64,000 nt of DNA from a virus (IMGVR_UViG_3300027566_000007:9341-73340); one strand, 5' to 3'. Positions 27,378 to 61,937 are shown, numbered from the stretch's first letter. Numbers and translations: made by a program. The notes: generated by a model from the sequence alone, not told the origin.

Positions 27378-27908
27378 ATGCCAGCCCAAAAGAAAAGAAA
27401 ATTAAAGAAACCAAAACAGGTAAATAAAAGTAAAGAATTTACCTGGTCAACAAAACGCAAAGAAGCGGCGTTATTACTATCAACCGGCTTGAAAACACAG
27501 AAAGAAGTCTGTGAGGAAATTCACATCACTGAAAAAACGATGTGTGAATGGAAGAAGTTTCCGGCCTTTTTAGAGAAAATTGACGAGCTCACTATCAAAA
27601 ATGAGAATTTCACACGAGCAGGGCTGTTAAAAGAGTGTCTTAAAGGACTTTCTATAAAAACTGATCACATATGTGAAGACAGATCAACCCATCTTGATTA
27701 TGTAAAACTGATTGCGGATTTACAGGGGCACACTAAACAGAAAGTAGAGCTTGATGCAAATTTAAAACATTCGAATGAACAAGACCCTGAAGAAATGACT
27801 GATGAAGAATTGAGGCAATCGATTAGAGATGATATCACAAAACTTATCACTGCAGGATATGTCCAGACAAGAACTACTAAAGATATATCAGCAAGTGAAG
27901 AAAACTAA
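27378..27908 (+). CDS. terS: Terminase small subunit (HTH)
   Basis: N-terminal HTH (AALLL...QKEVCEEIHITEKTMCEWKK..AF), QKVEL.ANL motif, overlaps terL. Confidence 0.8.
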   Translation: MPAQKKRKLKKPKQVNKSKEFTWSTKRKEAALLLSTGLKTQKEVCEEIHITEKTMCEWKKFPAFLEKIDELTIKNENFTRAGLLKECLKGLSIKTDHICEDRSTHLDYVKLIADLQGHTKQKVELDANLKHSNEQDPEEMTDEELRQSIRDDITKLITAGYVQTRTTKDISASEEN

Positions 27909-29421
27909 AAAAAAAGCAAGAGCTGCATCAAAAAAGCTTGCTAAATCAAACTTCCTAAATTTCACTCGTTATACCATGGAAGATTTCCGGGAGAGCTGGC
28001 ACCATAGAAAAATGGCCTCACTTCTTGAAGAATTCGTAAATAAAGAAATAACCAGACTAATTATTGACGTTCCTCCAAGACATACCAAATCTGAATTTGT
28101 TTCTCGCCGGCTTCCTCCTTATATCTTTGGGCGATTCCCAGATGCTAAAATTATTTCCTGTTCTTATGGGGCTGACCTGGCTTCTCAAATGAATGGCGAC
28201 GCACAGGCAATTATGGACGAACATTCTTATCATGAAGTTTTTCCAAATACTTTTTTAAATAGTTCAAATGTCAGAACAGTCGCAGGATCTTATAAAAGAA
28301 ACTCAGATATCTTTGAAATTGTAGGTAGAAAGGGTGTTTATAAATGTGCCGGAGTTGGGGGCGCAATTACCGGTTATGGTATGGATTACGGCATAATCGA
28401 TGATTATTTTAAAAATAGAGAAGAAGCCGAGAGCCCCGTATTTAGGGAGAAGCTCTGGAAATGGTATATGAGTACCTTCAGATCAAGGAGGCAGAAAAAC
28501 GCAGCTATCCTTATTACAGCTACTCGATGGCATGAAGACGACCTGGTTGGACGACTATTAAATCTCGCTGAACAAAATCCAAAGGCGGATCAATGGGAAG
28601 TTTTTTCATTACCAGCATTAACTGATGAAGAGCCTATAGCTGAGTATGATGAAAGAACAGGGCCCAATCAGGCTTTATGGCCAGATGAATTTTCAGTAGA
28701 CGACCTGCTAAGTACTAAAGCTTCTTTAACTACTTATGAATGGCTTTCACTCTATCAACAAAGACCGTCTGCAGCAGCAGGCAACCTTGTAAAGAAAGAA
28801 GACTTTAAATACTGTACTCTTGAAAACGGAGTTCTTACTCTATTCACTGACAAGGCAGCAGGCTCTAAAAAACTATTCATGCTTAACCAGTGCAAGGTAT
28901 TTCAAACATGTGATCCTGCAGCCTCAGAGAAAAAAACAGCTAATGATTTCGTTTTAGCCACGTGGGCACAGACTCCAAATAACGACCTTGCTTTAATAGA
29001 TATCTTAAAAACTAATTTAGAAACCCCTAAACACGTTCCTCTTTTTAAACAACAGTATGTAAAACACCACCCTCAGCAACAATGGATTGAAACTGATGGA
29101 GTAGGCCGGCCAACATTCCAATTATTAAGAGAAGAAGGGCTCCCAATTGCTGAATTAAAAACATCAGGGCACGATAAGTTAATTAGGTTTATACCTGCAG
29201 CTACAAGGATTACTGCAGGAGCAGTATATTTCTTAGCCGAAGCGCCTTGGTTAACGGCTTATGAAAGCGAGCTTTTAGGATTTCCAAACACCAAACAAAA
29301 CGGCCAGGTCGATGTTACGTCTTATGCTTGCCAGGTAGTTATAGAACATCCATTTATTGTTGAGTCTTACGAAACAACCTATGTAGGAGAAGGTGTAAGC
29401 TCCGGCGGCTTTTGGATATAA
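27829..29421 (+). CDS. terL: Terminase large subunit (start probably 27859)
   Basis: Walker A-like VPPRHTKS, GVGGAITG, IIDD, ATRWHEDD, LYQQRP, RNase H-like DPA...DF, FP...DVTSYA. Confidence 0.95.
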   Translation: MISQNLSLQDMSRQELLKIYQQVKKTKKKARAASKKLAKSNFLNFTRYTMEDFRESWHHRKMASLLEEFVNKEITRLIIDVPPRHTKSEFVSRRLPPYIFGRFPDAKIISCSYGADLASQMNGDAQAIMDEHSYHEVFPNTFLNSSNVRTVAGSYKRNSDIFEIVGRKGVYKCAGVGGAITGYGMDYGIIDDYFKNREEAESPVFREKLWKWYMSTFRSRRQKNAAILITATRWHEDDLVGRLLNLAEQNPKADQWEVFSLPALTDEEPIAEYDERTGPNQALWPDEFSVDDLLSTKASLTTYEWLSLYQQRPSAAAGNLVKKEDFKYCTLENGVLTLFTDKAAGSKKLFMLNQCKVFQTCDPAASEKKTANDFVLATWAQTPNNDLALIDILKTNLETPKHVPLFKQQYVKHHPQQQWIETDGVGRPTFQLLREEGLPIAELKTSGHDKLIRFIPAATRITAGAVYFLAEAPWLTAYESELLGFPNTKQNGQVDVTSYACQVVIEHPFIVESYETTYVGEGVSSGGFWI

Positions 29422-29466: not shown

Positions 29467-31293
29467 ATGCAATTCCCGAAAGTATCATCCATCTTCCCTT
29501 TCTCCAAAAAACTCTCTTCTGCATCTCCATCAAAAGACACCCAAGCAGCCCCTGTAGGTGCTGGCGTTTCTCAAGTAGGCGGAGATGAATATTCCCACCA
29601 AGAAAAATTTAATAAGTGGATCGAGGAAACCAAACACAAGCTCCCACGCGCCACGCCACTATTAAGAGAAGAAGCGTTCAGATCTGATCCATTAATCCAG
29701 GGCACTATATACCCATATCTCCGAAACGTCCTTCTGAAAGGCTATACAGTCCAGACAGAAGATAACAAGCTCTACTCGGAAGCCATTCAGGAAATTACGG
29801 CATACCTTGAGCAAATTGATATAATGCAGGTATTCCGGGAGGATTTCAAAGATTTTGCATTTCTCACCGGCCATACATACCGCAGGGCTGACCCTGACCT
29901 TTCAGGCAATATAATAAGGCTTGAAAAGATCGAGCCGTCCACTGTAGAGGTCTTTAACGATCCTTGGGACTCTTCAATAATAGCATATCATCAACACGCA
30001 AAAGTAAGAACAACATGGTCTTACCTGGGTGCTACAGAAGAAGTAGACAGTTGGTTTATTCCCTATGGGTCTGATCTGCAGGACGTAAACGCAACATATA
30101 TTCAAAACAGGGCTACCGGAAACGACCAGAGAGTTTATGATTTATTTACAAAGTATCAACAGAACTATTCAATCTCGAATATTTCTAACCTAAGGATAGC
30201 GGCTTCTGAGCGCGTTATTTCAATGCACAACTCGGATAAAACACAGAGGCTTTGCAACCAATATGACGATTCCGAACAAGTACCTTGCACTCCCGCGCCA
30301 ATTGATTCCGTTATCCTGGCTATCTGGCTAAAACGGTTACTTTTATCGAATGCGCCTCACCTTATTTACGTCGTGATCAATCCTTTCCTACACGCAAAGA
30401 CCGGTATTCTGAAAGATACTAAAGATACACTTGGACATACTTCTATTATTTCTTCAACACCTCAAAAACCATCTACTGCGCTACAAGCTACAAATCCTGT
30501 TATTTATAATGACATGCTTCAAAAATATGAGAACTATGTTAAGGAAAATGAAAAAGCTGCAAATAAAATTCTCGAAAATGTGAAAAATGGTGGCGTTTTT
30601 TTATCGGGACCAGACCTGGAAATAAAACCTATCGAATCTGCCAGAAACGTTTCTTATCAATTTATTAAAAGTCTTATCGATCAGCTTAATGAGGAAATAG
30701 GTCAAGCTTTTGGTTTTCCTATGTCACTCGTCACAGCGACGGGCACAGAGCTCGCAAGCTCAAGAAACATCTTGCAGATGTTCAATAGTGTGCATGCAGG
30801 TGAGCGTATGGAATATGAAAGCGTCGCAAACAAGCTCATTAAAAAACAGTTTGCTGAACGAACCTGGCAGGGCACTACAACTAAAAACGGTAAAGAGATC
30901 CAGGTAACTTACTCTCTTGAAGATATGCAGGTCAATTTTACCCTAGACACTCCAGACGTTAAAGACCTGCTTGCAGAAGCTCAGGCTTTGAAGGCAAGAG
31001 CCGAGACGCTTGTACAACTCAAAGGTATAGGGGCAGGTAAAGAAGACCTTCAGGCACTTGGAGAAGAGGCAGGATTCGGTATTCTTGCGTTGAATGGTAC
31101 GCCAGCACCTCAGGCTGAAGGAGCTCAAGGGGATCAAACTAATGCTATAATACAGGCTATAATTTCCGAGGCTTTAAGATCGGCAAGTCCTACAGACCCA
31201 AGCGGGTTTAAGGACAAAAAAATAACAGAGAGATTACAAGAAGCTTATAAAACGGCTAAAGAAACAATCGATAAACTTTTCGAGGAACATTGA
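29467..31293 (+). CDS. Portal protein
   Basis: Directly downstream of terL; about 600 aa; RLEKIEPSTVEV and EEIGQAFGFP.SL portal-like segments. Confidence 0.75.
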   Translation: MQFPKVSSIFPFSKKLSSASPSKDTQAAPVGAGVSQVGGDEYSHQEKFNKWIEETKHKLPRATPLLREEAFRSDPLIQGTIYPYLRNVLLKGYTVQTEDNKLYSEAIQEITAYLEQIDIMQVFREDFKDFAFLTGHTYRRADPDLSGNIIRLEKIEPSTVEVFNDPWDSSIIAYHQHAKVRTTWSYLGATEEVDSWFIPYGSDLQDVNATYIQNRATGNDQRVYDLFTKYQQNYSISNISNLRIAASERVISMHNSDKTQRLCNQYDDSEQVPCTPAPIDSVILAIWLKRLLLSNAPHLIYVVINPFLHAKTGILKDTKDTLGHTSIISSTPQKPSTALQATNPVIYNDMLQKYENYVKENEKAANKILENVKNGGVFLSGPDLEIKPIESARNVSYQFIKSLIDQLNEEIGQAFGFPMSLVTATGTELASSRNILQMFNSVHAGERMEYESVANKLIKKQFAERTWQGTTTKNGKEIQVTYSLEDMQVNFTLDTPDVKDLLAEAQALKARAETLVQLKGIGAGKEDLQALGEEAGFGILALNGTPAPQAEGAQGDQTNAIIQAIISEALRSASPTDPSGFKDKKITERLQEAYKTAKETIDKLFEEH

Positions 31294-35491: not shown

Positions 35492-36295
35492 ATGCCTTTC
35501 ACCATATCAAATTTCAAAAAAACCCTAAAATCCGCTTTTTCTAAACTCGAAAAAGACCAATCAGAAGCTTTAGCCGTCGAGATCTCAGCAAACTTTATAG
35601 CAGGCCAGACAGCAGCCGAGAAACACAAATCTATTAAATCAGCAGAACCAGAGGACGACGGCCTAACAGACGAAGAAAAAGCAGAAATAGCAACCCTTAC
35701 AGCTCTATATCTAGGCTACATCTCTGAATTCAATATCAGAGCACAAACTCAGATACTCACCAGGGTCCAGGAGCTTGTCAAGGCAGGCAACAGCCAGGAC
35801 GAAATACAAAGTTATGTTGATAGTGTCTTTTCAGGCGAAGAGTCTATAGTAATTGATAATGTGAGTAAGGAACGTAAAGAAATTTACGTTGATGAAAATC
35901 TTAAATTATCCGAAGTTACCAGAACCGTTGAGAATCCATTTTATAGCTCAGTTCTGGCTTATGCTTCACTTATTGGGGCGATAGCCTCACACACAGCCTA
36001 TGAGAAGGGCAAGGAATTGTATAATAAAGCACAGGGTTATAATAAATGGATCTTCTCAGGCCCCGCCGATGAGCGAGCGAGACCCTGGCACGTTGCTTTG
36101 TTGGGTCAGGTGTTTACCTATGGTACGGTACAAAGTAATTATGCTGAACAATGTTTAGGTGAGCCACGGTGCAGACATAGGAAAGAAGTATGGTATGGGG
36201 ATTCGAGGGACACGTCCCAGGAAAAATGGGAACAGTTAAAAAGAGATGCTGGTTTATTTTGGGACGATAAAGCCAAAACCTGGGCTTTGAAATAA
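35492..36295 (+). CDS. Head morphogenesis protein (MuF/gp7-like)
   Basis: WIFSGPADERARPWHVAL...PRCRH motif. Confidence 0.75.
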   Translation: MPFTISNFKKTLKSAFSKLEKDQSEALAVEISANFIAGQTAAEKHKSIKSAEPEDDGLTDEEKAEIATLTALYLGYISEFNIRAQTQILTRVQELVKAGNSQDEIQSYVDSVFSGEESIVIDNVSKERKEIYVDENLKLSEVTRTVENPFYSSVLAYASLIGAIASHTAYEKGKELYNKAQGYNKWIFSGPADERARPWHVALLGQVFTYGTVQSNYAEQCLGEPRCRHRKEVWYGDSRDTSQEKWEQLKRDAGLFWDDKAKTWALK

Positions 36296-41040: not shown

Positions 41041-41454
41041 TTAAAACGCCTTCTCAATTCTTTTCCAAATCCATTTCGGCAACACTCTCTTAACTCCTGT
41101 ACTAAGCCAATCAGTAATAATATGTAGATACTGGGGAACTATCAACCCGATAAACCACCATCCTGTGAAATATACTCCTAATACCCAGACGACGGCCCAG
41201 AATATAGGATTATGCAGCATCCCTCTATGATGAAACAGCATATCAATTATCCAACCGATGAAACCTAATCGTTTTCTTGATTTCGAATTTGTATCAAGGT
41301 CTGGAGTAATATATCGAGTTCCGATTACCCATAAGATTGAGAAATATACTAAATGTTGAATTTTCAAATGGATTACTATGGAGGATGTTAATAGAAGGGA
41401 TATGGCAACTATTAAGGAGATATAATTTAAGACTTCGTGATGTTTTCCGTTCAT
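41041..41454 (-). CDS. Membrane-bound putative metal-dependent hydrolase (DUF2227/YdjM-like)
   Basis: H...PDLD...HRG.LH...H...D motif with TM helices. Confidence 0.75.
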   Translation of the reverse strand: MNGKHHEVLNYISLIVAISLLLTSSIVIHLKIQHLVYFSILWVIGTRYITPDLDTNSKSRKRLGFIGWIIDMLFHHRGMLHNPIFWAVVWVLGVYFTGWWFIGLIVPQYLHIITDWLSTGVKRVLPKWIWKRIEKAF

Positions 41455-45306: not shown

Positions 45307-45722
45307 TGCTTCACCATGATTTTTCTATAGATTACTTAGTATGTTCTTATATATATTTGTTTGTCTCTAGTCAACTTCAGACAAACAAATATATACATAG
45401 ACGACTAATTTACAGTACCTATAAAAAATAAACTGTTAAACAGAGGTAAAATAATGAAAATATTTGAAAAGAATAACACAATGACAAGCAAGCCTTGCAA
45501 GCCATGTGGTGGAGACGTTGAAAATTACTTTGATGACAATTTCAAGGAAAAAGAGCAGGAAATCAAAAACGGTAGAAGATAAGGTGAGAAAATGAGCAAA
45601 CACGAAGATGCACAATATAAAAAATTAAGTCAAAAAATGTCTAACACAGTCAGTGACCGTGAATATGGCGGGCAGATGAATAAATTAGCAGACCGTGACC
45701 TGAAAAATATGAGGCAGAGAAA

Positions 45723-46196
45723 ATGAAAGTAGGAAAAATATTCACATTGTTTTTAGTTTCAATGCTTTTCCTTTCGATTAGCATTGGAACGGTAATGGCA
45801 AGCAGTGATGAAGAAGACAAAGAACTTGTCATAAAAGACGACAGTGGTAATGTTAAAGAAGATTCCACAGGAAACGCTGGAAAAATTCCCGAAATTGGTA
45901 ATCTAAGTACACCATCCACGGCTGAAGACATAACAGGCGACCTCGGGATTTTATCAGGACTTGGGGATTTTATTATAAAGTACGCAGTTCAAATAACAAT
46001 TTTTGTTATGGTGTTGGCAGCTGTGATTCTTAATCTTAGGGGCTCGTGGGCTCGTGGTAATAACAATCTGGATGACGCAGTTACTGCTCAAAAGAATCAA
46101 AAAGGTCTACTCGAAGACGGTATCTATGTAATGGCCGTGCTTTTGTTTATTTTCTGCGTTTTTGCGCCTTTCGTTAAAAGCTTCATTCAGCAATGA
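45723..46196 (+). CDS. VirB2/TrbC-like pilin candidate
   Basis: Signal peptide, acidic linker, then two hydrophobic helices separated by a short polar loop; first gene of the VirB4 cluster. Confidence 0.5.
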   Translation: MKVGKIFTLFLVSMLFLSISIGTVMASSDEEDKELVIKDDSGNVKEDSTGNAGKIPEIGNLSTPSTAEDITGDLGILSGLGDFIIKYAVQITIFVMVLAAVILNLRGSWARGNNNLDDAVTAQKNQKGLLEDGIYVMAVLLFIFCVFAPFVKSFIQQ

Positions 46197-46413
46197 GGAA
46201 TGTACAATGGATGAAAGAGCAAGAGAGGACATGATTATAGGGGTCGCTGCCTGCATTGAAGCCAATCATTGCGCTATCAAACGTGATGACATCTATAAAA
46301 AGTTCAAGAATACTAAGCGTGAGGAGTTGAAGTACATAATCGAGATCATGAAGGATCGCAGGATGCTTCAGTATGATGAAAATAGAGATTTGTACAGACT
46401 AATTATCAGATGA
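46162..46413 (+). CDS. Small winged-helix protein (start probably 46208)
   Basis: IKRDDIYKKF...LKYIIEIMKDRRML. Confidence 0.5.
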   Translation: MRLSLKASFSNEECTMDERAREDMIIGVAACIEANHCAIKRDDIYKKFKNTKREELKYIIEIMKDRRMLQYDENRDLYRLIIR

Positions 46414-46581
46414 ATTTGAATGACAAAAGAGGTTATAATATGGCTATAAAACTCGGAAAATGGGATATACAGACAATAGAACACGGTGGAGAAATCAAAA
46501 AATTCGAACGTGTGAGGCTTGGATCAGTCTGGACTCCTGTATGTAAATCTTCTAAAGAGAAAACAAAGCGTTCGTGATCAG

Positions 46582-48015
46582 ATGAATGTTTTTCGTCTCT
46601 CTGCAATTCTTATTTTTTTACTGGTTTTTGGCTCACAGGTAGCCTATGCAGGAGACGAACAGATCACGTTAAGTCCTGATGGATCTCATTCTAATCAAAA
46701 CCAAATAAACAAAGCTTTTGAGCAGGGTAATGTCTACCTCAAAGCCGGTGTTTATGAGGTCGATAATACTATTATAATAGGCTCAGATCGTGTTTTAACT
46801 GGAGATCCGGACGCTATTATTAGAGTTTATTCTGGATCATCACAATGGTTTACAGGCGCTACAGGTGTGATAAGTTGCTCTGGAATCGTTGATAACATCG
46901 AAATTTCAAATATCCAAATTGATGGAAATATAGGCAGTCTGCCGAAAAGTTATGCAAATTCAAGAGCGGATACAGACCACGATTGCGAAAAATTAATAAT
47001 ACTCCGTGGTTCATCAACCCAGTTTGCAAAAAACATCAAGATCCATAACCTTAAACTTTATAATTCTTTTTCAGATGGTATTTATATAATTTTTGGCGAG
47101 AACATCCAATGTTATGACAATTTCATTAGCAATTGCCAGCATGAAGGTATTTATTACTCTTGCCTTAAAAATAGTGAGTTTTTCAGAAATAAAATAGCTG
47201 GTATATGCAGTGATGCAGCCAGGCTTGACAACTGTGTAAACTGCAAAGTACATGATAATTACTTTTTTTCATACAATGGGGAAAGTTACGGCCAATATAA
47301 AGGCGGTCAAGCTGGTTTGCAAATTGCTAATGCAGGATCTAGTCACGGTTACGATGCTAGTAAAAAACCTCAAAAAACGGATAATGTTGAGGTATATAAT
47401 AACGTGTTTGCAGACCCAGGGAGACAGGCTATCTGGCTGCATAATTATGATGGCAATGTGTATGTTCACGACAATTCATTTATTGATGCTGCCAGCCTTG
47501 AAACGCAGGGAATACCCGTAGGTGATATCTCAGTCGATAATCCTCCATCAGTTGAAACATCAGAAAAAGTATTCACCAATATAATTGATTTTTTGAAACG
47601 TGATTACATTTTCCAATATCCAGCAGTTAAGCATGATTTTAAAGCCTCTGTGACTGTAACAAGTCTCAACAGCTCTATAAAACAGTCTTCAACAGTGAGA
47701 GTATCAGGAAAACATCTCAGCGTTATAAAATTTGAGTATAATGGAATTACAACAAAGCATTTCATTGAACGTAATATGTGGGTAGGGGAACTGTCTCACA
47801 TAGGAAATGATCTTTATATCCCGGGAAAAATACAGCCTGAAAAATTACATATCACCGTATACGGCAAAGCTGGTTTTCAGAAAGTTGAAAATGTTAAGAT
47901 CACTGAGGTTAGCTCTGCCGGAGTCAGTATTAACCCTAACTTTTTTATTTTCATTGCCGTTTTGGCAATCTGCGGTCTTTCAATAGCAAGAAATTTTAGG
48001 AGAATGATTCAATGA
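46582..48015 (+). CDS. Surface-anchored beta-helix protein (signal peptide plus C-terminal TM)
   Basis: MNVFRLSAILIFLLVFGSQVAYA; QINKAFEQG.VYLKAGVYEVDNTIIIGSD...GD; NSFSDGIY; C-terminal TM and basic tail (ORF track starts at 46519). Confidence 0.75.
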   Translation: MNVFRLSAILIFLLVFGSQVAYAGDEQITLSPDGSHSNQNQINKAFEQGNVYLKAGVYEVDNTIIIGSDRVLTGDPDAIIRVYSGSSQWFTGATGVISCSGIVDNIEISNIQIDGNIGSLPKSYANSRADTDHDCEKLIILRGSSTQFAKNIKIHNLKLYNSFSDGIYIIFGENIQCYDNFISNCQHEGIYYSCLKNSEFFRNKIAGICSDAARLDNCVNCKVHDNYFFSYNGESYGQYKGGQAGLQIANAGSSHGYDASKKPQKTDNVEVYNNVFADPGRQAIWLHNYDGNVYVHDNSFIDAASLETQGIPVGDISVDNPPSVETSEKVFTNIIDFLKRDYIFQYPAVKHDFKASVTVTSLNSSIKQSSTVRVSGKHLSVIKFEYNGITTKHFIERNMWVGELSHIGNDLYIPGKIQPEKLHITVYGKAGFQKVENVKITEVSSAGVSINPNFFIFIAVLAICGLSIARNFRRMIQ

Positions 48016-49097
48016 TAAAAAGAGCGATAGCACTGACATTTTGTTTATTACTTTTATGTAGTTATGTAGCGGCTGCTGCTACGAACACTAACTTAACCGA
48101 CTCAAAACACACCAGTAATGACAGCAAAGACAAACAGGCAACATCCCAAGGAAAGGTTACCAGTCTATCAAATTCGACAGAAAACAGTAAAAACAATTCA
48201 TCGAGCTCAGATTCAAATATCAAATCCGAAGAAGTGGATAATGGTAATTTCTTAACCAATGCGGTTTCGTCTGGTATAGCCCTCTTTCTTAAGGGGCTAT
48301 TCGATGGCATGTATACTGATGTATATGCAGACGGGTATGGCCCAGGAGAAACAGGCACTATAACAAACGGCACTGAGTACACAAATTCTACGTATGATGG
48401 TATTTATACAGCCATAACAAGCGTCCCACATCCATATGAAGATGATAAAATAGTTAAACTATATGGTGGATACCTGAACCTAACACTATTTTGCATCTCA
48501 ATTTTCGTTTTTGGCGCACTAACCAGCCGAAGTATTGCGCGGATGAAACTTAACAAAAACCTAAATTTAACACAGTCGGCTTTCGTTGGTGGAATTGCAA
48601 CTTGTCTTTTTGCGCTGGTTACAAATATTATCTACGCTGGCATACTGGATACAATCGAAGTACTTAATAATTTTATAACACTTCCAGCAATGCCAGCACT
48701 GGCCCCAGACCCTAGCAATCTGTTATTGTGTATTGTACAGACATTTTGTGATTTGGTATTGTTTGTATTTTTCATTATCCGGTACTATATCTTATATATT
48801 GTCGCGGTTGGTTGCTCAATTATTGCGGTTCTTCTCGTTCCAGAATTCACCAGGGACTTTTCAGAAAAATGCCTTGAAAAAATAGCTAGAATTCTTGCAC
48901 TTCAACCAGCCGCCCTTTTCGTGTACGTAGTCTGTGTAATTTCTGCGGATAGTCTACCTGGTAGCTTAAAAGCATTTGCGCATATCGGGACAACTGTAAT
49001 GGTTTCCGTGACATGTTGGTATTTCATGTTTGGAAATTTTACACTCTTGAAAAGAGGAATATCATACACAGTTAGGAAAGGAGTTGGAAAAATATGA
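48012..49097 (+). CDS. Polytopic membrane protein, VirB6/TrbL-like
   Basis: Signal peptide, S/N-rich linker, about 5-6 TM segments with FF..RY..L..V....I...L pattern; upstream of VirB4. Confidence 0.6.
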   Translation: MIKRAIALTFCLLLLCSYVAAAATNTNLTDSKHTSNDSKDKQATSQGKVTSLSNSTENSKNNSSSSDSNIKSEEVDNGNFLTNAVSSGIALFLKGLFDGMYTDVYADGYGPGETGTITNGTEYTNSTYDGIYTAITSVPHPYEDDKIVKLYGGYLNLTLFCISIFVFGALTSRSIARMKLNKNLNLTQSAFVGGIATCLFALVTNIIYAGILDTIEVLNNFITLPAMPALAPDPSNLLLCIVQTFCDLVLFVFFIIRYYILYIVAVGCSIIAVLLVPEFTRDFSEKCLEKIARILALQPAALFVYVVCVISADSLPGSLKAFAHIGTTVMVSVTCWYFMFGNFTLLKRGISYTVRKGVGKI

Positions 49098-50002
49098 ACA
49101 ACGACACACCTTATGGACAGCCTAAAGCGCCGGTAACGATTACAAAAATAAAATCAGACAGATTCCTAGATTTGACCAATTTACATACCTGGATTATGTT
49201 TATCGCTATTGGTCTATGTATGTACTTTTTCAAAATGATTGCTTTGTCTACTTTGGATGCAGACCGGTTAATGTATGCATCATTACTTCTATTGGTAGTG
49301 TTTTTATGGGTAAAATACTTCAGAAACGATGAACTTGTAGAATTTCAGAAAGACCGGTTTATATTTTTCATTGCAGACATTAGGGGAAAGCATGTTATTG
49401 ATGCCTTCTCCGAGCAACTTAAAACACTGATGAAAATTATCTCAATAGCAGCTATTCACGAAGGTGGTATTATAGAATTCCAGAGCAATCAAAGCGGTTT
49501 TATTCACTGGTTAAAAAGACTCTTTAAACTCGAAGTTAGAAAGCCTAATGAATTTGGAGTACTTTTTGAAACTTTTCCACCCAGGATATCAGATGAGTAT
49601 CGAGAAATCCACGAGGCAAAGCAGGAAAAGGTTGTTAACGGTCTTCCTGTGAACACTCTATATGAGAGTATAGCCTGCTCTGTTTTGGAGCCAAAGAAAC
49701 CGGTACTTCAGTATCTTTTAGAGCTTCAAAAAACATCAGGTGGTAAAGCAAACGATCAGCTTCTTGCAGACATGTATCTGCAGATTAGCCAGGACGAAGA
49801 CCAGGTCATAAGCTGGAGATATTTTAAGTTCTTAAGTCTTGGTCAACAAAAAAATATTGAAGCAGCCAGAATACAGTTTGGAGCCGTAGTCCCTGGTTTG
49901 CTCCATAGTATGTCAGCAGCATCATTACACCCCACTGTTTTGACAGACGAATGGGACATAATCAATGCATACCAAATAATGTTAGGGGAGGTTTCTATAT
50001 GA
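49094..50002 (+). CDS. Two-TM protein, VirB3/PrgI-like with soluble C-terminal domain
   Basis: Two N-terminal TM helices; overlaps the virB4 start. Confidence 0.5.
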   Translation: MNNDTPYGQPKAPVTITKIKSDRFLDLTNLHTWIMFIAIGLCMYFFKMIALSTLDADRLMYASLLLLVVFLWVKYFRNDELVEFQKDRFIFFIADIRGKHVIDAFSEQLKTLMKIISIAAIHEGGIIEFQSNQSGFIHWLKRLFKLEVRKPNEFGVLFETFPPRISDEYREIHEAKQEKVVNGLPVNTLYESIACSVLEPKKPVLQYLLELQKTSGGKANDQLLADMYLQISQDEDQVISWRYFKFLSLGQQKNIEAARIQFGAVVPGLLHSMSAASLHPTVLTDEWDIINAYQIMLGEVSI

Positions 50003-52518
50003 GCCTTTTTAAGAGCCTTAGAAGAAGCTGGAAGAAAGCAGGTGAAAAGGCTGTCGATCTTTCCTGGAATAGATCTTATGCTAAGAAAATACTGCCATCA
50101 AGAATCGAGATCTTCGATACGAACCTGCTTTTTAATCAAAGAACGGTAGTTAGGTGTCTGGTGTGTGGAACTGAAATGCATTCTGGTGCAGAAGGATACC
50201 CTAGGAATTTTTCGAGCCGAACTATGGAAGCAATACAGGCTATAAGCTTCCAGGGTGTCAAAATTATGATGTCAACTGGCCTGATTCAAATCCCAGGTGG
50301 TAGGACGAAAGAGGTGCTGCAAAGAGCTAACTTTGATGCCGAGAAGCAACAGCTTGTTAATCAGTTGGAAAAAGCAGGCAGTAAAGATTTAGAATTAATG
50401 ATGAAGTCAAACGATATAGTACAGAATTATTCAGAAATTTATCATAAAAATCAAAAAACATTTCATGCAAGCTTGATAGTGGTTCTAAAAGGTCCACATA
50501 ATAAGGTTTTCGAGGCAGAGAGTCAGATAATTAATATTATTCGCGGAGAAAGCATTGAAATAGACATCCCAACAAGAAAACAAATGGAGATGCTGCAAAC
50601 CGCTTTACCAGGTCCGGACTCTCATCCTCGTTCGTGGGTGGAAGTGAGAACTTCAGGAGCTGCAGTATTAACTTCTGCTACGAACCTCAACAGCCGGACA
50701 GATAACGAGGGGATGGTGTGGGGAAAAGACCTACTTACAAACAATCAGGTTGTTTTTGATCTGGATAACCTGGCATCTAAACATATGGTCGTTTGTGGCC
50801 CCACCAGATCAGGGAAAACCTATGCTTTCATGATGCTACTTATGAGGCTTCTGTACCTGCGAAATGCAAGAGTAATATATACAACACCAAAGGGTGATAT
50901 TGGCACGAATTACCGGTCTGTAGCTGGCTTCTTTGGGGAAAAAGGATGTGTAGCTGATATTGGCCTAAATGGTACTGAGTATCTTAATCCCTTGGATATC
51001 CTGGTAGACGAAGAAAGTATCGGGAATTCCCCACAGGCGTATGCTAAAGCTTATGATCTAAAAAAGGACGTGTTAATTCATGCTCACCGTATCTGGTTAG
51101 GTAATGAATTTACTTCGAATATGGAAAGTTATCTTGATGAAAGTATGGATTGGGTTTATGAGCAAGCAAAGGTCTTCAGGGATGATCCGGCAAGTTTCAA
51201 AAATCAAATGCCTGTGTACAACAACATGAGGTATAAATGGGAACTTGACAAGGAAAATAAAAACTTAGGGACAAAAGCAAAAACAGCAGAGGCTCTTTAT
51301 AACAAAAGTTATCAGTTTTCAGAAACAGGGCTGTTCAATAGGTACAATAACCAGACAAAAGGACTCAATTTAAACAAGGATTTCATTATTATTGACATGG
51401 CAGGAGTTCCAGAGGCAATTAAGCCATTCATGAGCGTAATAGTTAACGGCACACTTGCAACCAGGTTTTCAACAGACGTTGAACGAGAGACTTATCTGGC
51501 AGTGGACGAAGGAGCAGTATACCTCAGGGATAAAGAGCTTGCAGGGAACCTTCTCAGGACGCTTACACAGGGAGCCTCACATAAATTTTATTTATGGCTG
51601 GCTACTCAACAGGCAAGCGATTTCAAGAAGAATAATGTTTCAGAAGAATTCCAGGCCAACACTTTTATCAGTATTGTTTTAGGAAACAACTTAAAGGGCG
51701 CAGCCGTTAGGATAGCAAAAGACTATTTTGATCTTACCGACGAAGAGTGCTCAATTCTTGCAGGCTGCACAGTCGGAGAAGGTCTGCTACTCTTCGGAGA
51801 TGAACGAGTACCTATCAGGTTTGAATCCACTCCAACTGAAAATAAGATCATCAAAGGTGAAGGGTATACAGGGGAAAATATTACGCCCGGTGTTGAATTT
51901 GCATTTAAGAAAGAATACAAGTGGTTAATAAACGAGCAAAGAATGGTACTTTCTGACTGGATTGAAGGTGACCGTGACATATTATTACAACGTGGCTATG
52001 AAAAACACAAGGTAGCCAGAGTCAACAAACCAGGAAGGGTAGTAGCATTTTTCCCCAAAGGTGCGGTAATAAACGACAAAATGAGAATACCGCATATAGG
52101 GACCATGTCATTAGATCACTACGCTTCCGTGGTCCAAATTGGAGCACTCATGCAGGATGAAAAATTTGAGGAAATAACGATAAACCATAATGACGAGGAG
52201 GATTTACGCGGGAAAAAGAACGGAATAATACTGGCCATCGAGTACGAGAAAAAAGGATCTCATACTACTGAACAATTGCTAGAAAAGAAGCGTGCCGCGC
52301 TCGAAAAAGGCATGGAAGTAAGGTTTATATGCAGTTCGGAAGACTACCCATTCATTGCGGGCATCGTAGGAGAAGATTACTGCCTTCAGAGAGGGGCAGC
52401 CGTCGCCGAATTCTTACACAATTTCGGCAATCAGAAACCGATAACAGTAGAAACCCTTGTTTCTGAAACATTGGTGGAACTTACAGAAGAAACAGAGGCT
52501 TTAGAAGCCTTAGATTGA
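49999..52518 (+). CDS. virB4: VirB4-family conjugation ATPase with extra C-terminal domain
   Basis: N.QVVFD, HMVVCGPTRSGKT, LNPLD, FIIIDM, LAVDEGAVYL, LWLATQQASDF, GEGLL; GGGGAGG RBS before ATG 49999. Confidence 0.85.
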   Translation: MSLFKSLRRSWKKAGEKAVDLSWNRSYAKKILPSRIEIFDTNLLFNQRTVVRCLVCGTEMHSGAEGYPRNFSSRTMEAIQAISFQGVKIMMSTGLIQIPGGRTKEVLQRANFDAEKQQLVNQLEKAGSKDLELMMKSNDIVQNYSEIYHKNQKTFHASLIVVLKGPHNKVFEAESQIINIIRGESIEIDIPTRKQMEMLQTALPGPDSHPRSWVEVRTSGAAVLTSATNLNSRTDNEGMVWGKDLLTNNQVVFDLDNLASKHMVVCGPTRSGKTYAFMMLLMRLLYLRNARVIYTTPKGDIGTNYRSVAGFFGEKGCVADIGLNGTEYLNPLDILVDEESIGNSPQAYAKAYDLKKDVLIHAHRIWLGNEFTSNMESYLDESMDWVYEQAKVFRDDPASFKNQMPVYNNMRYKWELDKENKNLGTKAKTAEALYNKSYQFSETGLFNRYNNQTKGLNLNKDFIIIDMAGVPEAIKPFMSVIVNGTLATRFSTDVERETYLAVDEGAVYLRDKELAGNLLRTLTQGASHKFYLWLATQQASDFKKNNVSEEFQANTFISIVLGNNLKGAAVRIAKDYFDLTDEECSILAGCTVGEGLLLFGDERVPIRFESTPTENKIIKGEGYTGENITPGVEFAFKKEYKWLINEQRMVLSDWIEGDRDILLQRGYEKHKVARVNKPGRVVAFFPKGAVINDKMRIPHIGTMSLDHYASVVQIGALMQDEKFEEITINHNDEEDLRGKKNGIILAIEYEKKGSHTTEQLLEKKRAALEKGMEVRFICSSEDYPFIAGIVGEDYCLQRGAAVAEFLHNFGNQKPITVETLVSETLVELTEETEALEALD

Positions 52519-52617
52519 AACGGTACATAGAGAGACACTCTATGTATTATACTAAAAACTATCCACAGCAGGGCATTTTAAATACTATTATGACTATTAC
52601 TATGTATGGATAGGAAA

Positions 52618-52758
52618 ATGATAAAATGTCCTGCGTGTGGGTATGAATGGATTTACAAAGGTAAAAAGTTAAAAATGATTGCCGAAGGAAAACGGGTTTA
52701 TTTAACTTGCCCTACATGCAGGACTAATGTAAAAGTGGAGTCAAAAGAGGTTGAGTGA
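52618..52758 (+). CDS. Small zinc-ribbon protein (46 aa, not in ORF track)
   Basis: MIKCPACGYEW...TCPTCR. Confidence 0.65.
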   Translation: MIKCPACGYEWIYKGKKLKMIAEGKRVYLTCPTCRTNVKVESKEVE

Positions 52759-53591
52759 TGGCATCTCGTAGGTTTTTTTCAGATGATGAGCTTCTTAGAG
52801 TGTTATCTTCAGTACCTCAACCAACTTCTGCGATTAGTTCTGCTATAAAATGTTCACCCGACGCGGCTCGGAAGCGTTTAAGACTGTTACATGACGCGGG
52901 TATAATAGAAATGACAGAAATTCCGTTCAATACAAAAATTAGAAAAATATACATGTGGAGCAAAAAAGAAGCACCTGTCAAAAACAACACACCAGATCAT
53001 TATCTTATTTGTAAACAATGTAAACGATTAAAACCTATACGTGACTTTTCTACGTTACATGGAAAGTATATAACTATGTGTAAGAGCTGCAAGAATGAAA
53101 ATTATAGGAGAAATTATAAACTTAAACAATTAACAAATGAATTAAAATCAAAAGAGAAAGAATTGATCAATTTTAGAGAATATTCCACTGGAAATAAAAT
53201 TGATCTATATATAAAAAAAGCACAAGAGATTGACAAAATAAGTAAACAAATTTTTAGGATTAAAAACTGGTACAGAATACGAAACCGAGAACGTATTTAT
53301 GGGACCAAAGTATCAGGAAAACTCTCAAAAATGAAAGCCAACTCTAAACGTCGATTTTTAGGGTTTAACCCGATAAATGAATATTTCAAAGGTTCTGAAT
53401 ATCACCATCTTCGATATAATACAAATGGTCAAAAAGATGATGATATTGGTATCTTTATACCACGCGATATACATCGTTCCGTGCCACATAACGGCGTAAC
53501 GGGAATGGGGATGGATGAAATGAATTCAATAGCCATTAAATGGTATAATTCAAATGGTGGAAACCTGAACTACTCTATACAGACTGTATAG
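52755..53591 (+). CDS. wHTH plus zinc finger plus HNH-like protein
   Basis: ARKRLRLLHDAGII (wHTH), CKQC...CKSC, EYHHL...IFIPRDIHRSVPHN. Confidence 0.6.
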   Translation: MMASRRFFSDDELLRVLSSVPQPTSAISSAIKCSPDAARKRLRLLHDAGIIEMTEIPFNTKIRKIYMWSKKEAPVKNNTPDHYLICKQCKRLKPIRDFSTLHGKYITMCKSCKNENYRRNYKLKQLTNELKSKEKELINFREYSTGNKIDLYIKKAQEIDKISKQIFRIKNWYRIRNRERIYGTKVSGKLSKMKANSKRRFLGFNPINEYFKGSEYHHLRYNTNGQKDDDIGIFIPRDIHRSVPHNGVTGMGMDEMNSIAIKWYNSNGGNLNYSIQTV

Positions 53592-57903: not shown

Positions 57904-58866
57904 ATGACAGTATCAGCACCAAACGAGGAATTTCTTACAAAAAGGTTTGTCGTTCCTTACATGTTCGAAATTATGAACCCCATGCTTGCATGGACGGACA
58001 TGTTCCCAATGGTTCGATCAACGGCTCCGGTTGTTGGTTACAAACAGGAAACCGTTTCAGATTCGACGGACACCAAGAAACAGAAACCAAAAATCAAAAC
58101 AACTACAGGCCAGTGGACTTATGTGAACATTTCACAGTTCACAATGAAATCAGCTATCCTGAACAAAAAGGGTTTTGCAATCAAGATTGACCCGGATGCC
58201 CTCGACTACACCGAGGGAGTAGACGAAATTCAAAGGGCTTTCCGGAAAACAGCTTTCTGGATTGCTGAAGATTTTAACGACAGGATTTCTGATGAAATCA
58301 CGGCTTCAGCCACTGCACTTTCTACAGATTGGACTCCTTCTGCAGTATGGTCTGATCCAAACGCAACCCCAATTGCTGACCTCGAAGACCTGGAAGACTG
58401 CTTCATCCGTGAAGGGTATCCGTATAGACTCACAGATGTCTATGTGCACAAAACCAATTTCAAGGAATTCAAAAAGTATCTTACCAGCATAGATATCGGA
58501 GACTTCAAACAGCAGAACCTATATGGAGTTCCAAACAACGGTAAGATGGACTCAATTGACGTTCCAGTAGTGGGTACAACTGTTCACAGACTTCTTTCAG
58601 GTGTTTCAGAGGGGTCTATTGTTGCGATGGACCGCAATAACCCTGGACTGTCGGTGTTCTACAATCCAAGTCGCCGGTACTCTGTCATGAACGGCAACTA
58701 CAATACCATAGCAAACGGGCAGAAAATAAGCAAGTCGCTTGCATATGGTTTTAACTACAACCGGTACACCGACCAGGAAACTCACGAAGAAGTAATACAG
58801 CTCTGGTATGATAACGTACCTGTCACACTTGAGCCGTATGCAATCGCAACCGATCAAGGGATTTAA
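57904..58866 (+). CDS. Major capsid protein (HK97 fold)
   Basis: 320 aa; KKGFAIKI, WSDPNATPIADL and RLTDVYVH patterns; strong GGAGGGG RBS; canonical position. Confidence 0.8.
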   Translation: MTVSAPNEEFLTKRFVVPYMFEIMNPMLAWTDMFPMVRSTAPVVGYKQETVSDSTDTKKQKPKIKTTTGQWTYVNISQFTMKSAILNKKGFAIKIDPDALDYTEGVDEIQRAFRKTAFWIAEDFNDRISDEITASATALSTDWTPSAVWSDPNATPIADLEDLEDCFIREGYPYRLTDVYVHKTNFKEFKKYLTSIDIGDFKQQNLYGVPNNGKMDSIDVPVVGTTVHRLLSGVSEGSIVAMDRNNPGLSVFYNPSRRYSVMNGNYNTIANGQKISKSLAYGFNYNRYTDQETHEEVIQLWYDNVPVTLEPYAIATDQGI

Positions 58867-59750: not shown

Positions 59751-61937
59751 ATGCCACGCGAAGACTTTGTTCTGCCTAGAGGCGGGACTGCGGCGTTATG
59801 GGCATCGAGAAATACGGTGTTAGCTCTCAGGGAACTAGGGGTAGAAACTGATACTAAAAAGATGAAGATCGGCGACGGTGTAACACATTGGAATGATCTT
59901 CCGTATATAACTGGGCCTGTTGACGGTGACAATGTTGATCTCCAAGTGAAAAGAGACACAGATGTGAATTTATCAGCTTTGACAACTCCGTTTTTAAGCG
60001 GGCAGCTTGTTTATGGTCAAACTACTGGAAAAACTGTAATAGGTGATGGGGAGTCTTTATTTGATGAGTTGCCAGATTTGAGGAAGCAGTTTCAGAATGT
60101 TGTAACTGTGAGTAAGAGTGGGAAGAAGGGGAGTGCTGATTTTATATGTTCTGATTCACAGTGGAATTCTGATGATGAGTGTATACAGGCGGCGATTGAT
60201 TATTGCGCTACACATAGTATCAAAGAATTGTGGATTAATGAGGGGTATTATATAATAAATGCTCAACTTACAGGATCATCTGATATTAATATTAAAGGTG
60301 TTGGGGACGTAACTCTATTTTCAAATTCACTAGCTTCAGATTTAATTTCATTATCGGGTTCTGTTTTAAAAACAGTAACCGGATCAGATGTTGCGGTTGG
60401 CGCAACATCAATTATGGTATCAGACGTTACGGGGATTAATCCAGGGGATCTTATCTTAATTTATGATGATACCATATGGGACGATGGATCAACTTACGCT
60501 AGTCTGAAAACCGGGGAAATACACGAGGTATTAAGTGTTTCTGGCAGCACTGTTAATTTTATAGACGGGTTAATTAATGCGTATACCGCTGTAAACAATC
60601 TCTCCGTACAAGTCATTAATCCAATTCGTGTTAATATCGAAAATATCAAATTTTTGGGATCTTCTGAGACCACAGCGAATGGGCTTGTTTCGCTCACGTA
60701 TGCTAAATATAGTATAATTTCTGAGTGTATATTGGATAAAGGCGGCCTGCGTGGATTGCATATAAACAATTCATATTTTGTATCCGCTGAAAAACTCAAA
60801 ATTTCAAACTGTATCAGAGACGGGTATGGATATGGGATATCGATATCTAATGCATGTGCACACGTCGGTATACAAAAATCGAAATTAGATATGTGTAGAC
60901 ATTGTATATCGCTAGGTGGGGATGAATCTATCGGGCAAGCGCGAGACATACACATTTATAATAATGAAGTGTATGGAAATGGGTTATATCACACAATTGA
61001 CGCTCACGCATGTGTAGAATCGATATATGTTAATAATAATATAATTCATGCTAATAAAAAATCCGCATTCACAAGCGGTGCAAAAATTTCTGAATTTAAA
61101 AATAATAGGGTGTATAATGGTATAGCTGTATCCGTGAGAGACACAACTAAAAATATGGTATTTTTAGTTGATAGCAATTCTCTGTTTTCATGTTGGTATG
61201 GTTTTAGCGATACCACAGAAGGTGCAACTATAAAATATTTGTCATTCTCAAATAATGATATCATAGATGGGTTGTACTACATGTTATACGTTACCCATGC
61301 AAGTATTATAAACATTGTAAATAATAATATAAATAAATCAACAGAACTGTATGGTATACGTGTTCATTCGGCGACGGGTGGAAAAATACAAAACAATATA
61401 ATTCAAAATACGTTTAGAGACGGGATATATTTAATCGATTGCTCAAACATCACCCTATCTAACAATGTTATTGAAAATAGCAATGGGTCAAACACGGCAG
61501 GACAATTATATGAATCAGGTATTGCACTAACACGCTGTACAAATTTAAAAATATTTAATAATGATGTAAGCGATGCATTTGGTAAACAGAGATACGCAAT
61601 CGCTGAATATGATACTTGTAATAACAATAAAATTAAAAATAATACGGTTAGCGGGGCAATAATAAAACAGATTCTCAAAGTCGGAGCAGCAACAGTTATT
61701 TTTAATAACGACGGGTATATCACAGAAAACACCGGCACAGCAACAATTACCACCTCCTCAACCTCTGTAGTAGTCAGTCACGGTTTAGTAGCAGCCCCCA
61801 CAAAATATTTTGCATTCCCATCAGCAAATTTGGGTAACTGTTGGATTGATACTGTAACAGCTACACAAATGACTATTCACTGTTCAACTGCACCAGGAGC
61901 AGATACAGTAGTAAGTTGGTCTGCGCAGGTGGTTTAA
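59751..61937 (+). CDS. Spike/fibre: two Mtd-N-like repeats plus pectate-lyase-like beta-helix
   Basis: W...N.VL...ELGVETDTKKMKIGDGVTHWNDLPY and a second IGDG...F.ELP; DDECIQAAID; beta-helix rungs; C-terminal V.HGL..AP...VSW.A. Confidence 0.75.
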   Translation: MPREDFVLPRGGTAALWASRNTVLALRELGVETDTKKMKIGDGVTHWNDLPYITGPVDGDNVDLQVKRDTDVNLSALTTPFLSGQLVYGQTTGKTVIGDGESLFDELPDLRKQFQNVVTVSKSGKKGSADFICSDSQWNSDDECIQAAIDYCATHSIKELWINEGYYIINAQLTGSSDINIKGVGDVTLFSNSLASDLISLSGSVLKTVTGSDVAVGATSIMVSDVTGINPGDLILIYDDTIWDDGSTYASLKTGEIHEVLSVSGSTVNFIDGLINAYTAVNNLSVQVINPIRVNIENIKFLGSSETTANGLVSLTYAKYSIISECILDKGGLRGLHINNSYFVSAEKLKISNCIRDGYGYGISISNACAHVGIQKSKLDMCRHCISLGGDESIGQARDIHIYNNEVYGNGLYHTIDAHACVESIYVNNNIIHANKKSAFTSGAKISEFKNNRVYNGIAVSVRDTTKNMVFLVDSNSLFSCWYGFSDTTEGATIKYLSFSNNDIIDGLYYMLYVTHASIINIVNNNINKSTELYGIRVHSATGGKIQNNIIQNTFRDGIYLIDCSNITLSNNVIENSNGSNTAGQLYESGIALTRCTNLKIFNNDVSDAFGKQRYAIAEYDTCNNNKIKNNTVSGAIIKQILKVGAATVIFNNDGYITENTGTATITTSSTSVVVSHGLVAAPTKYFAFPSANLGNCWIDTVTATQMTIHCSTAPGADTVVSWSAQVV

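Follow-up and report, generated by a model that had tools for sequence, protein, structure and literature searches.

Ced- and Ted-type systems are, to our knowledge, known only from Thermoproteota, and Helicobacter pylori ComB is a bacterial, diderm example of a DNA-uptake type IV secretion core that works without a coupling protein. Ced (Sulfolobales, Aeropyrum) and Ted (Thermoproteales) are DNA-import systems (PMC9905601; PMC11868833). Here we describe a gene cassette of similar composition in a virus. It lies in a 64,000-nucleotide (nt) stretch of DNA (the window), which comprises bases 9341-73340 of the 73,340-bp IMG/VR virus record IMGVR_UViG_3300027566_000007; all coordinates are given in window numbering unless a locus name precedes them. 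The cassette encodes a pilin-like protein, a secreted beta-helix enzyme, a VirB6-like membrane protein and a VirB4-type ATPase made of two pieces. With a probability of roughly 0.9, we regard it as an intact, autonomous mating-pair-formation module of conjugative (monoderm/archaeal type IV secretion) ancestry that has become fixed in one lineage of temperate head-tail viruses infecting Methanosarcina. In a full-text literature search, no publication turned up that reports VirB4 or type IV secretion modules for tailed viruses of archaea. The paper on the Methanosarcina virus MetMV (67.8 kb, from a hydrocarbon-polluted subsurface), which may be identical or closely related to the virus described here, mentions no VirB4 or secretion genes (PMC7164591). 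Also new are the assignment of a gene first called VirB3-like to a split VirB4, the stand-alone copies of the cassette on chromosomes, a relative that carries VirD4, and an intein in the Walker A motif of one homologue.

The cassette is Ced/Ted-like in composition and conjugative in ancestry, and it has no coupling protein. With Ced and Ted it shares a VirB2-like pilin, a VirB6-like protein, a VirB4-like ATPase, the lack of coupling protein and relaxase, the derivation from conjugation and the occurrence of stand-alone chromosomal copies. It differs from them in being euryarchaeal (Methanosarcina) and virus-borne, in its split VirB4 with a domain of predicted PD-(D/E)xK fold and in the beta-helix depolymerase-like enzyme of its operon. 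Furthermore, its VirB4 falls far short of CedB orthology (45.6 bits against a cut-off of 700, P-loop only). In monoderm (FATA-type) conjugative systems, such as that of the Brevibacillus plasmid NZ_CP144923, the genes for a VirB6-like protein, PrgI and a CD1110-type VirB4 are followed by that for a wall hydrolase. These systems and the mycoplasma integrative and conjugative elements (ICEs; model VirB4_plasma) supply the best-scoring VirB4 models for the cassette and its fused relatives. The order of membrane channel protein, membrane-hairpin element and VirB4 is shared as well, as is an envelope-degrading enzyme in the operon. In contrast, the cassette has neither VirD4 nor a relaxase, its hairpin belongs to a VirB4 piece and not to PrgI/VirB3, its hydrolase is of the beta-helix/disaggregatase and not of the NlpC/P60 type, and its carrier is an archaeal virus.

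A homologous four-gene core, in which VirB4 has the same C-terminal domain, is shared with conjugative plasmids and ICEs of archaea (Sulfolobus pNOB8-type; thaumarchaeal ICEs, PMC6563490) and with the contig L026 described below. Unlike the viral and chromosomal cassettes, which have neither, these elements keep VirD4/TraG, and L026 also ArdC-N. VirB4 is a single fused protein of ~1070 amino acids (aa) in L026 and in two other distant loci (L025, L028), whereas it is split in the viral cassette. ComB of H. pylori is likewise a type IV core moving DNA without a coupling protein, but it has many more parts (VirB7-10) and is not virus-borne. Finally, bacterial phage-plasmids (PMC12282955) also join virion formation and a plasmid-type function in one element. 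They combine virions with plasmid replication and partition and have no mating apparatus, whereas the virus described here combines an integrase with a transfer-type cassette.

The cassette forms one operon on the plus strand (45454-52518), in which all genes are intact and co-oriented. The features of the operon and of its upstream region are as follows.

45350..45395: candidate operator, a palindrome with 22-nt arms (91% complementary), located between divergent genes ahead of the operon
45419-45433: candidate promoter, an A/T-rich TATA-like stretch after the palindrome
45454..45585, plus strand: first operon gene, a 43-aa open reading frame (ORF) with a CxxC motif; a 43-aa ORF stands at the same place in the related loci L002 and L003
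45592..45726, plus strand: 44-aa ORF, ending in an ATGA stop/start overlap with the pilin-like gene
45723..46196, plus strand: pilin-like protein, 157 aa, with a signal peptide ending A-x-A and two hydrophobic helices
46207..46413, plus strand: small soluble protein of ~68 aa, without a Pfam match and kept only in closer relatives
46582..48015, plus strand: secreted right-handed beta-helix enzyme, 477 aa (Pfam match, signal peptide, C-terminal membrane anchor)
48012..49097, plus strand: VirB6/TrbL-like polytopic membrane protein, 361 aa (from topology and ESM Atlas)
49094..50002, plus strand: N-terminal piece of a split VirB4, 302 aa (from a family profile compared with fused VirB4s)
49999..52518, plus strand: VirB4-type ATPase, 839 aa, with the rest of the N-domain, an FtsK/HerA-type motor and a C-terminal extension
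52105..52425, plus strand: PD-(D/E)xK (Hjc-like) nuclease-fold domain of VirB4 (from predicted fold and invariant residues)

Most gene junctions overlap (ATGA or similar), which points to translational coupling; the VirB4 start at 49999, for instance, forms an ATGA overlap with the stop of the preceding gene. The G+C content of the cassette matches that of the genome. The initial annotation had described a single operon of five genes beginning at 45723. These five genes are indeed present, intact and co-oriented, but the operon begins two ORFs earlier, at ~45454.

For the 839-aa protein, annotated from the start as a VirB4 ATPase, the CD1110 VirB4 model of NCBIfam gives a match with E 2.3e-27, in which model positions 262-735 align to residues 122-623. 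Its sole sequence match in the Protein Data Bank (PDB) is the VirB4 C-terminal domain 4AG5, which is covered end to end (E 8.7e-7, chain residues 7-391). The Walker A (GPTRSGKT, 50797-50820) and Walker B motifs (AVDEGA, 51499-51516) are invariant in 19 homologues. These three lines of evidence bear out the assignment. The NCBIfam CedB match is weak (3.8e-12, 45.6 bits against a cut-off of 700) and confined to the P-loop, so that the protein stands much nearer to the conjugative VirB4 models (95.6 bits) than to CedB. In the 'phages' collection no close VirB4 homologue was found, only three weak matches (20-23% identity) on unannotated gut contigs. One homologue, P0025 (1219 aa), carries a LAGLIDADG/Hom_end intein of ~355 aa that splits the Walker A loop precisely after GSGK and before T; a position exactly inside this loop is as expected for an indispensable active site.

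The 302-aa ORF preceding VirB4 had been called VirB3-like, but the comparison with fused relatives identifies it as the N-terminal fragment of a split VirB4. A conserved N-peptide is followed by a membrane hairpin (residues 32-77), and the beginning of the VirB4 N-domain makes up most of its length. A search of its family profile against 1.84 billion representative proteins returned ~100 clusters, most of them 270-330 aa long, together with a few proteins of 1066-1092 aa in which the match covers residues ~20-275. For one such fused protein, P0242, hhalign aligned the remainder with the VirB4 of the virus across 762 columns (probability 100%, E 2.9e-92). As a whole, P0242 matches VirB4_plasma, the mycoplasma-ICE VirB4 model, over positions 14-894 (E 2.4e-44) and CD1110 from position 38 onward. 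In three independent fused proteins (P0242, P0249, P0282), CD1110 model positions ~10-160 fall on the segment with homology to the 302-aa ORF. Hence, the ORF supplies the first ~160 CD1110 positions that are missing from the 839-aa piece. The split and the stop/start overlap are kept in all eight relatives checked. At 302 aa, the ORF is too long for VirB3/PrgI (~100-140 aa) and has no Pfam match, and alignment of its hairpin to a PrgI protein reached only 10% probability in hhalign. A PDB profile search of the family was empty, and the ESM Atlas gave no usable match. What the VirB3-like label captured correctly is that the piece places a membrane hairpin ahead of VirB4, as VirB3 does.

The last ~200 residues of VirB4 are conserved, with H707, H730, D735, E748, E750 and K763 invariant. 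Their predicted fold contains an alpha-beta-beta-beta-alpha-beta unit (core pLDDT 80-94), for which Foldseek ranks Hjc, the Holliday-junction resolvases of archaea, highest (E 2e-3, probability 1.0, rmsd 2.6 A). The C-terminus of VirB4 is thus predicted to have a PD-(D/E)xK (Hjc-like) nuclease fold. The catalytic triad D...(D/E)-x-K appears in a variant form, D735...E748-x-E750, with the invariant K763 on the next helix, and we regard the domain as a predicted nuclease. Since it is also found in the fused VirB4s (E 1e-17 to 1e-30), it is probably ancestral to this VirB4 clade.

The products of the remaining cassette genes fit a mating-type apparatus, and their initial descriptions were upheld in outline. 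In the 157-aa pilin-like protein, the two hydrophobic helices behind the signal peptide are joined by a basic RGSWAR loop (VirB2/TrbC/CedA1-type topology), and 12 homologues as well as the proteins of the fused-VirB4 elements have the same topology. The 361-aa protein is encoded beside VirB4 in all loci examined. It starts with a signal/anchor and a Ser/Asn-rich outer region, followed by 5-6 membrane helices. By ESM Atlas features it is closest to a TrbL_4 cluster (0.91, 202 shared features), and its ten best named matches all belong to the TrbL clan; by structure it reaches a TM score of 0.61 to a TrbL_3 cluster and also resembles CTnDOT TraJ and TrbL. It is homologous to the membrane protein beside the fused VirB4s (E 2.4e-4 to 5.6e-9). 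The Pfam TrbL models match neither this protein nor any of 11 family members, a PDB profile search was empty, and a comparison of the family profile with a Firmicutes neighbour protein in hhalign gave nothing. We therefore use the name VirB6-like, which stops short of proven membership in TrbL/VirB6. The beta-helix protein matches Pfam Beta_helix (9.6e-8) and Pect-lyase-like (3.1e-5), and its counterpart in the chromosomal locus L017 carries a Disaggregatase-related domain (Disaggr_assoc, 3.8e-26). This would fit an opening of the methanochondroitin envelope, comparable to the role of the wall hydrolase in bacterial operons. The protein is therefore a candidate envelope or matrix depolymerase and a possible functional analogue of VirB1; the proposal that it clears Methanosarcina matrix remains plausible.

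The record itself is a head-tail virus (Caudoviricetes), with large terminase (TerL), portal and HK97-type capsid genes on one molecule. MuF, tail and integrase genes are also present on the 73-kb record, which is complete according to CheckV and is a metagenomic contig without terminal repeats; the best-matching DNA sequencing data come from a groundwater metagenome of 2017. The viral genes that serve as landmarks are listed below.

14371-15573, minus strand: tyrosine integrase
27829-29421: TerL (Terminase_6N 1.9e-5; 41% identity to the TerL of a Methanomicrobiales Caudoviricetes record)
29467-31293: portal
35492-36295: MuF-like gene
57904-58866: capsid (weak Phage_capsid_4 match; 93% identity to the L002 capsid)
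59751-61937: Mtd_N/beta-helix fibre

A coiled-coil scaffold-like gene precedes the capsid gene (scaffold/capsid block, 56.3-58.9 kb). The tail genes, including a 1388-aa ORF of tape-measure size, lie at the start of the record, which indicates that the map is circularly permuted. The operon had been placed within the capsid gene region. It does occupy the stretch from portal/MuF (29.5-36.3 kb) to scaffold/capsid, but is set apart from either by small minus-strand ORFs arranged in blocks. The host is Methanosarcina: the virus encodes Disaggregatase-related domains, and homologues of the cassette occur in Methanosarcina metagenome-assembled genomes (MAGs) and in the isolate Methanosarcina sp. 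Ant1.

Relatives of the cassette are stably associated with such viruses. VirB4 has 65 homologue clusters (33-100% identity), and in independently assembled relatives the cassette is located upstream of scaffold-like and capsid genes. The downstream capsid is of the HK97 type (Linocin_M18/Phage_capsid) in L010 and L013, and gives a weak Phage_capsid_4 match in L002/L003; L004 has tail-like genes downstream of the cassette and no recognisable capsid. Three of the five IMG/VR fragments encode a TerL homologue (43-65% identity) on the cassette contig. The metagenomic origin of the record and its lack of terminal repeats could suggest an assembly chimera of a virus and a plasmid or ICE. The junctions on both sides of the cassette, however, recur across samples and pipelines, in L002 and L003 from ENA and in L008, L010 and L013 from IMG/VR, and we consider the probability of a chimera negligible.

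A second alternative is that part of an integrated conjugative element landed in the virus, where it persists, stripped of coupling protein and relaxase, as a passenger that is neutral or in decay. The cassette evidently moves from one type of replicon to another, and the existence of a VirD4-bearing relative makes the viral version a reduced subset. Against this, the cassette genes are intact in every lineage examined, the start/stop overlaps are conserved, and the G+C content is that of the genome. For all six genes, non-synonymous change (pN 0.09-0.45) is far below synonymous change, which is saturated (pS at least 0.72), indicating purifying selection. The position is the same at 43-65% TerL identity, and such retention through deep viral divergence suggests a direct benefit to the virus instead of optional cargo. 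A passenger is therefore very improbable and largely refuted. Of the 'independent passenger element' considered in the initial annotation, the mobility of the cassette stands, whereas its retention through viral divergence speaks against the passenger. Taken together, the recurring junctions, the co-location with TerL, the selection and the Walker A intein reject misassembly and pseudogenisation, and the conjugation-type module first proposed is a real, type IV secretion-derived one and a stable part of a head-tail virus genome. Three cassette contigs (P0017, L016, L020) were binned into bacterial MAGs (Paludibacteraceae, Proteiniphilum, Leptospirales) and are probably misbinned viral contigs.

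The origin of the cassette is indicated by distant versions. L026, a 42-kb contig, has the gene order pilin-like protein, anchored secreted protein, VirB6-like protein and fused VirB4, and encodes in addition VirD4 (PF02534 5.2e-46, plus TraG-D_C and TrwB), ArdC-N and toxin-antitoxin genes. It is a conjugative-type element, and the presence of a distant version in such a VirD4-bearing element argues for a conjugative ancestry of the cassette. Two further distant versions adjoin Cdc6 or a Prim-Pol primase, with no visible VirD4. Just upstream of VirD4 in L026 lies a 178-aa ORF (L026:2551-3087) containing HDDHTPNRHMH, which resembles relaxase motif III; this ORF has no Pfam match that would support a relaxase-like motif. 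If L026 is archaeal, the ORF would be a rare relaxase candidate.

In three Methanosarcina genomes, the intact cassette stands alone between cellular genes (L019:5464-12469, L018:5638-12460, L017:5715-12457). The genes of L018 and L019 are full-length and uninterrupted by tblastn, and Terminase_6N has no match in the three genomes. In Methanosarcina sp. Ant1, the cassette is flanked by genes for PspA, PsiE and an ArsR/V4R regulator on one side and for an alkaline phosphatase (2e-88) on the other. The flanks in the second genome are a PstS-like binding protein gene on one side and pentapeptide, transposase and STAND genes on the other, those in the third TPR and LiaF genes. Among 177 species genomes from the family, 13 have a VirB4 match at E 1e-10 or better. 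When the VirB4 tree is rooted on the fused forms, the copies on chromosomes branch basally to two virus-borne clades or are unresolved from and interleaved with them. This placement implies at least one transfer of the cassette between chromosomes and viruses, and perhaps two. The stand-alone copies may represent a Ced-like system in methanogens that is independent of any virus.

These copies raise the possibility of Ced/Ted-like import, in which the cassette-bearing cell (a lysogen, an infected cell or one with a chromosomal copy) would take up DNA from its neighbours, the viral cassette being a lysogenic-conversion or recombination-promoting module with no part in spreading the virus. Such a function would agree with the composition of the cassette, which is that of Ced and Ted in its pilin, VirB6-like and VirB4-like proteins and in the absence of coupling protein and relaxase (PMC9905601, PMC11868833). 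It would also agree with the intact copies among cellular genes, with their place in the tree relative to the viral clades and with the weak CedB match (3.8e-12). That match, however, is limited to the P-loop and scores 45.6 bits, as compared to 95.6 bits for the conjugative model. Moreover, it is not usual for lysogenic-conversion genes to persist as a 7-kb cargo at one position across viruses whose TerL identity falls to 43%, and the benefit to the virus would be indirect. We therefore consider import a serious reading, although an unlikely one.

The likeliest function of the cassette appears to be contact-dependent DNA transfer. It is suggested by the combination of a nuclease fold on a motor of the DNA-pump type with a pilin-like protein, a channel and an envelope-opening enzyme. 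The direction of this transfer is the weakest step of our reading. We tentatively favour export, at somewhat less than even odds and above Ced-like import: whichever replicon bears the cassette would be transferred between neighbours in an aggregate, in the present case viral or prophage DNA without virions. Retention at a fixed position argues for export, as does the VirB4, which is nearer to the conjugative models than to CedB; a further argument comes from the plasmid-like elements that have the cassette and no other transfer gene in view.

A number of observations weigh against export by the virus. The complete 73,340-bp record was scanned in six frames for seven Pfam families, and the positive controls worked. 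Here the VirD4-related models PF02534 (T4SS-DNA_transf) and PF01580 (FtsK_SpoIIIE) matched only the P-loop of VirB4 itself, and PF10412 (TrwB_AAD_bind) matched nothing. The relaxase models PF03432 (Relaxase), PF08751 (TrwC), PF02486 (Rep_trans) and PF03389 (MobA_MobL) likewise had no match in the record. The absence of VirD4 and of an HUH relaxase, first noticed in the window, thus extends to the rest of the genome. VirD4 is also absent from five related IMG/VR records, and tblastn with the related VirD4 found nothing in 386 kb of related loci; every virus-borne copy examined is without it. No oriT-like site was identified. Where characterised, type IV systems that move DNA without a coupling protein are importers, as is ComB. 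The same is true of Ced, a DNA-moving system that also lacks a coupling protein (PMC9905601). Furthermore, VirB4 scores below the curated cut-offs (95.6 against 325 bits for CD1110, 23.4 against 643 for TIGR00929), which makes it a divergent relative and not an equivalog. The 157-aa protein has no Pfam or PDB sequence match, and the PDB profile search of its family was empty; it is a candidate pilin by topology, signal peptide and gene position. Finally, the intact stand-alone copies on chromosomes indicate that the cassette is autonomous and not tied to a viral genome. Together with the lack of VirD4, they weaken the original idea of a virus-conjugative hybrid that would spread from cell to cell. 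The missing relaxase itself weighs little, because archaeal elements are generally without recognisable relaxases (PMC9905601, PMC6563490).

If the cassette does transfer DNA on contact, its parts could act as follows. The membrane-anchored beta-helix enzyme would open the methanochondroitin or S-layer envelope locally, while the pilin-like and VirB6-like proteins would build a pilus and a membrane channel. The VirB4 motor, tethered at the membrane by its separate N-terminal hairpin piece, would power assembly and DNA passage, and the nuclease-fold domain fused to it would cut or process DNA at the cytoplasmic face. We propose that with such processing by VirB4, a separate relaxase or coupling protein may not be needed. 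In its full form, this proposal describes a head-tail virus with two routes of spread, virions and a self-encoded conjugation-like channel without coupling protein or relaxase in which the VirB4-nuclease fusion processes the DNA. Through this channel, viral or prophage DNA would go straight from one matrix-embedded Methanosarcina cell to another, and chromosomes and plasmid-like elements would use the same cassette as a minimal 'plug-in' for transfer. As a whole, the proposal is doubtful.

The same parts might also serve no DNA transfer at all. Ptl and the Brucella VirB system lack a coupling protein and secrete proteins, which gives a precedent for coupling-protein-free protein secretion; an adhesion or aggregation pilus, or envelope remodelling that aids virion release or entry in matrix-embedded cells, would be other such roles. 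The surface-anchored depolymerase-like enzyme and the position of the operon, which adjoins morphogenesis genes on the same strand, are compatible with this. But a DNA substrate is suggested by the conserved nuclease-fold domain on the motor, the operon has no conserved gene for a candidate effector, and the chromosomal copies have no virion to release. We judge a role outside DNA transfer to be rather improbable, and contact-dependent DNA transfer remains our preferred reading.

Upstream of the operon, the palindrome and the TATA-like stretch may act as operator and promoter. Relatives have palindromes at the same place (L008:5698-5749, a perfect one of 52 bp, and L002:5802-5853), the sequences of which differ between lineages. 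A gene for DUF2227, a metal-binding membrane protein, is located on the minus strand (41041-41454) in the block upstream of the cassette, and a DUF2227 gene also lies directly upstream of the cassette in the distant element L028. VirB4 is followed on the same strand (52606-53591) by a 50-aa zinc-ribbon ORF and a gene for a 278-aa helix-turn-helix (HTH) protein. By tblastn, the HTH protein has no counterpart in related loci; the zinc-ribbon ORF was not part of this search. The genome encodes four beta-helix proteins in separate modules (716-2293, 11644-13026, 46582-48015 and 59751-61937), of which the second has a Disaggregatase-related domain and the last an Mtd_N head.

Viruses and conjugative elements are held to be separate classes of mobile DNA, and a conserved mating-type apparatus in tailed viruses would blur this line. 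For these viruses, cell contact may be a second route for DNA beside the particle. If this is true, a virus could spread within cell aggregates that are poorly penetrated by virions. The fusion of VirB4 to a nuclease-fold domain offers a testable answer to the question of how archaeal transfer systems process DNA without a relaxase. The intact chromosomal copies in Methanosarcina, in turn, suggest that methanogens amenable to genetics have a system for DNA exchange that has yet to be studied.

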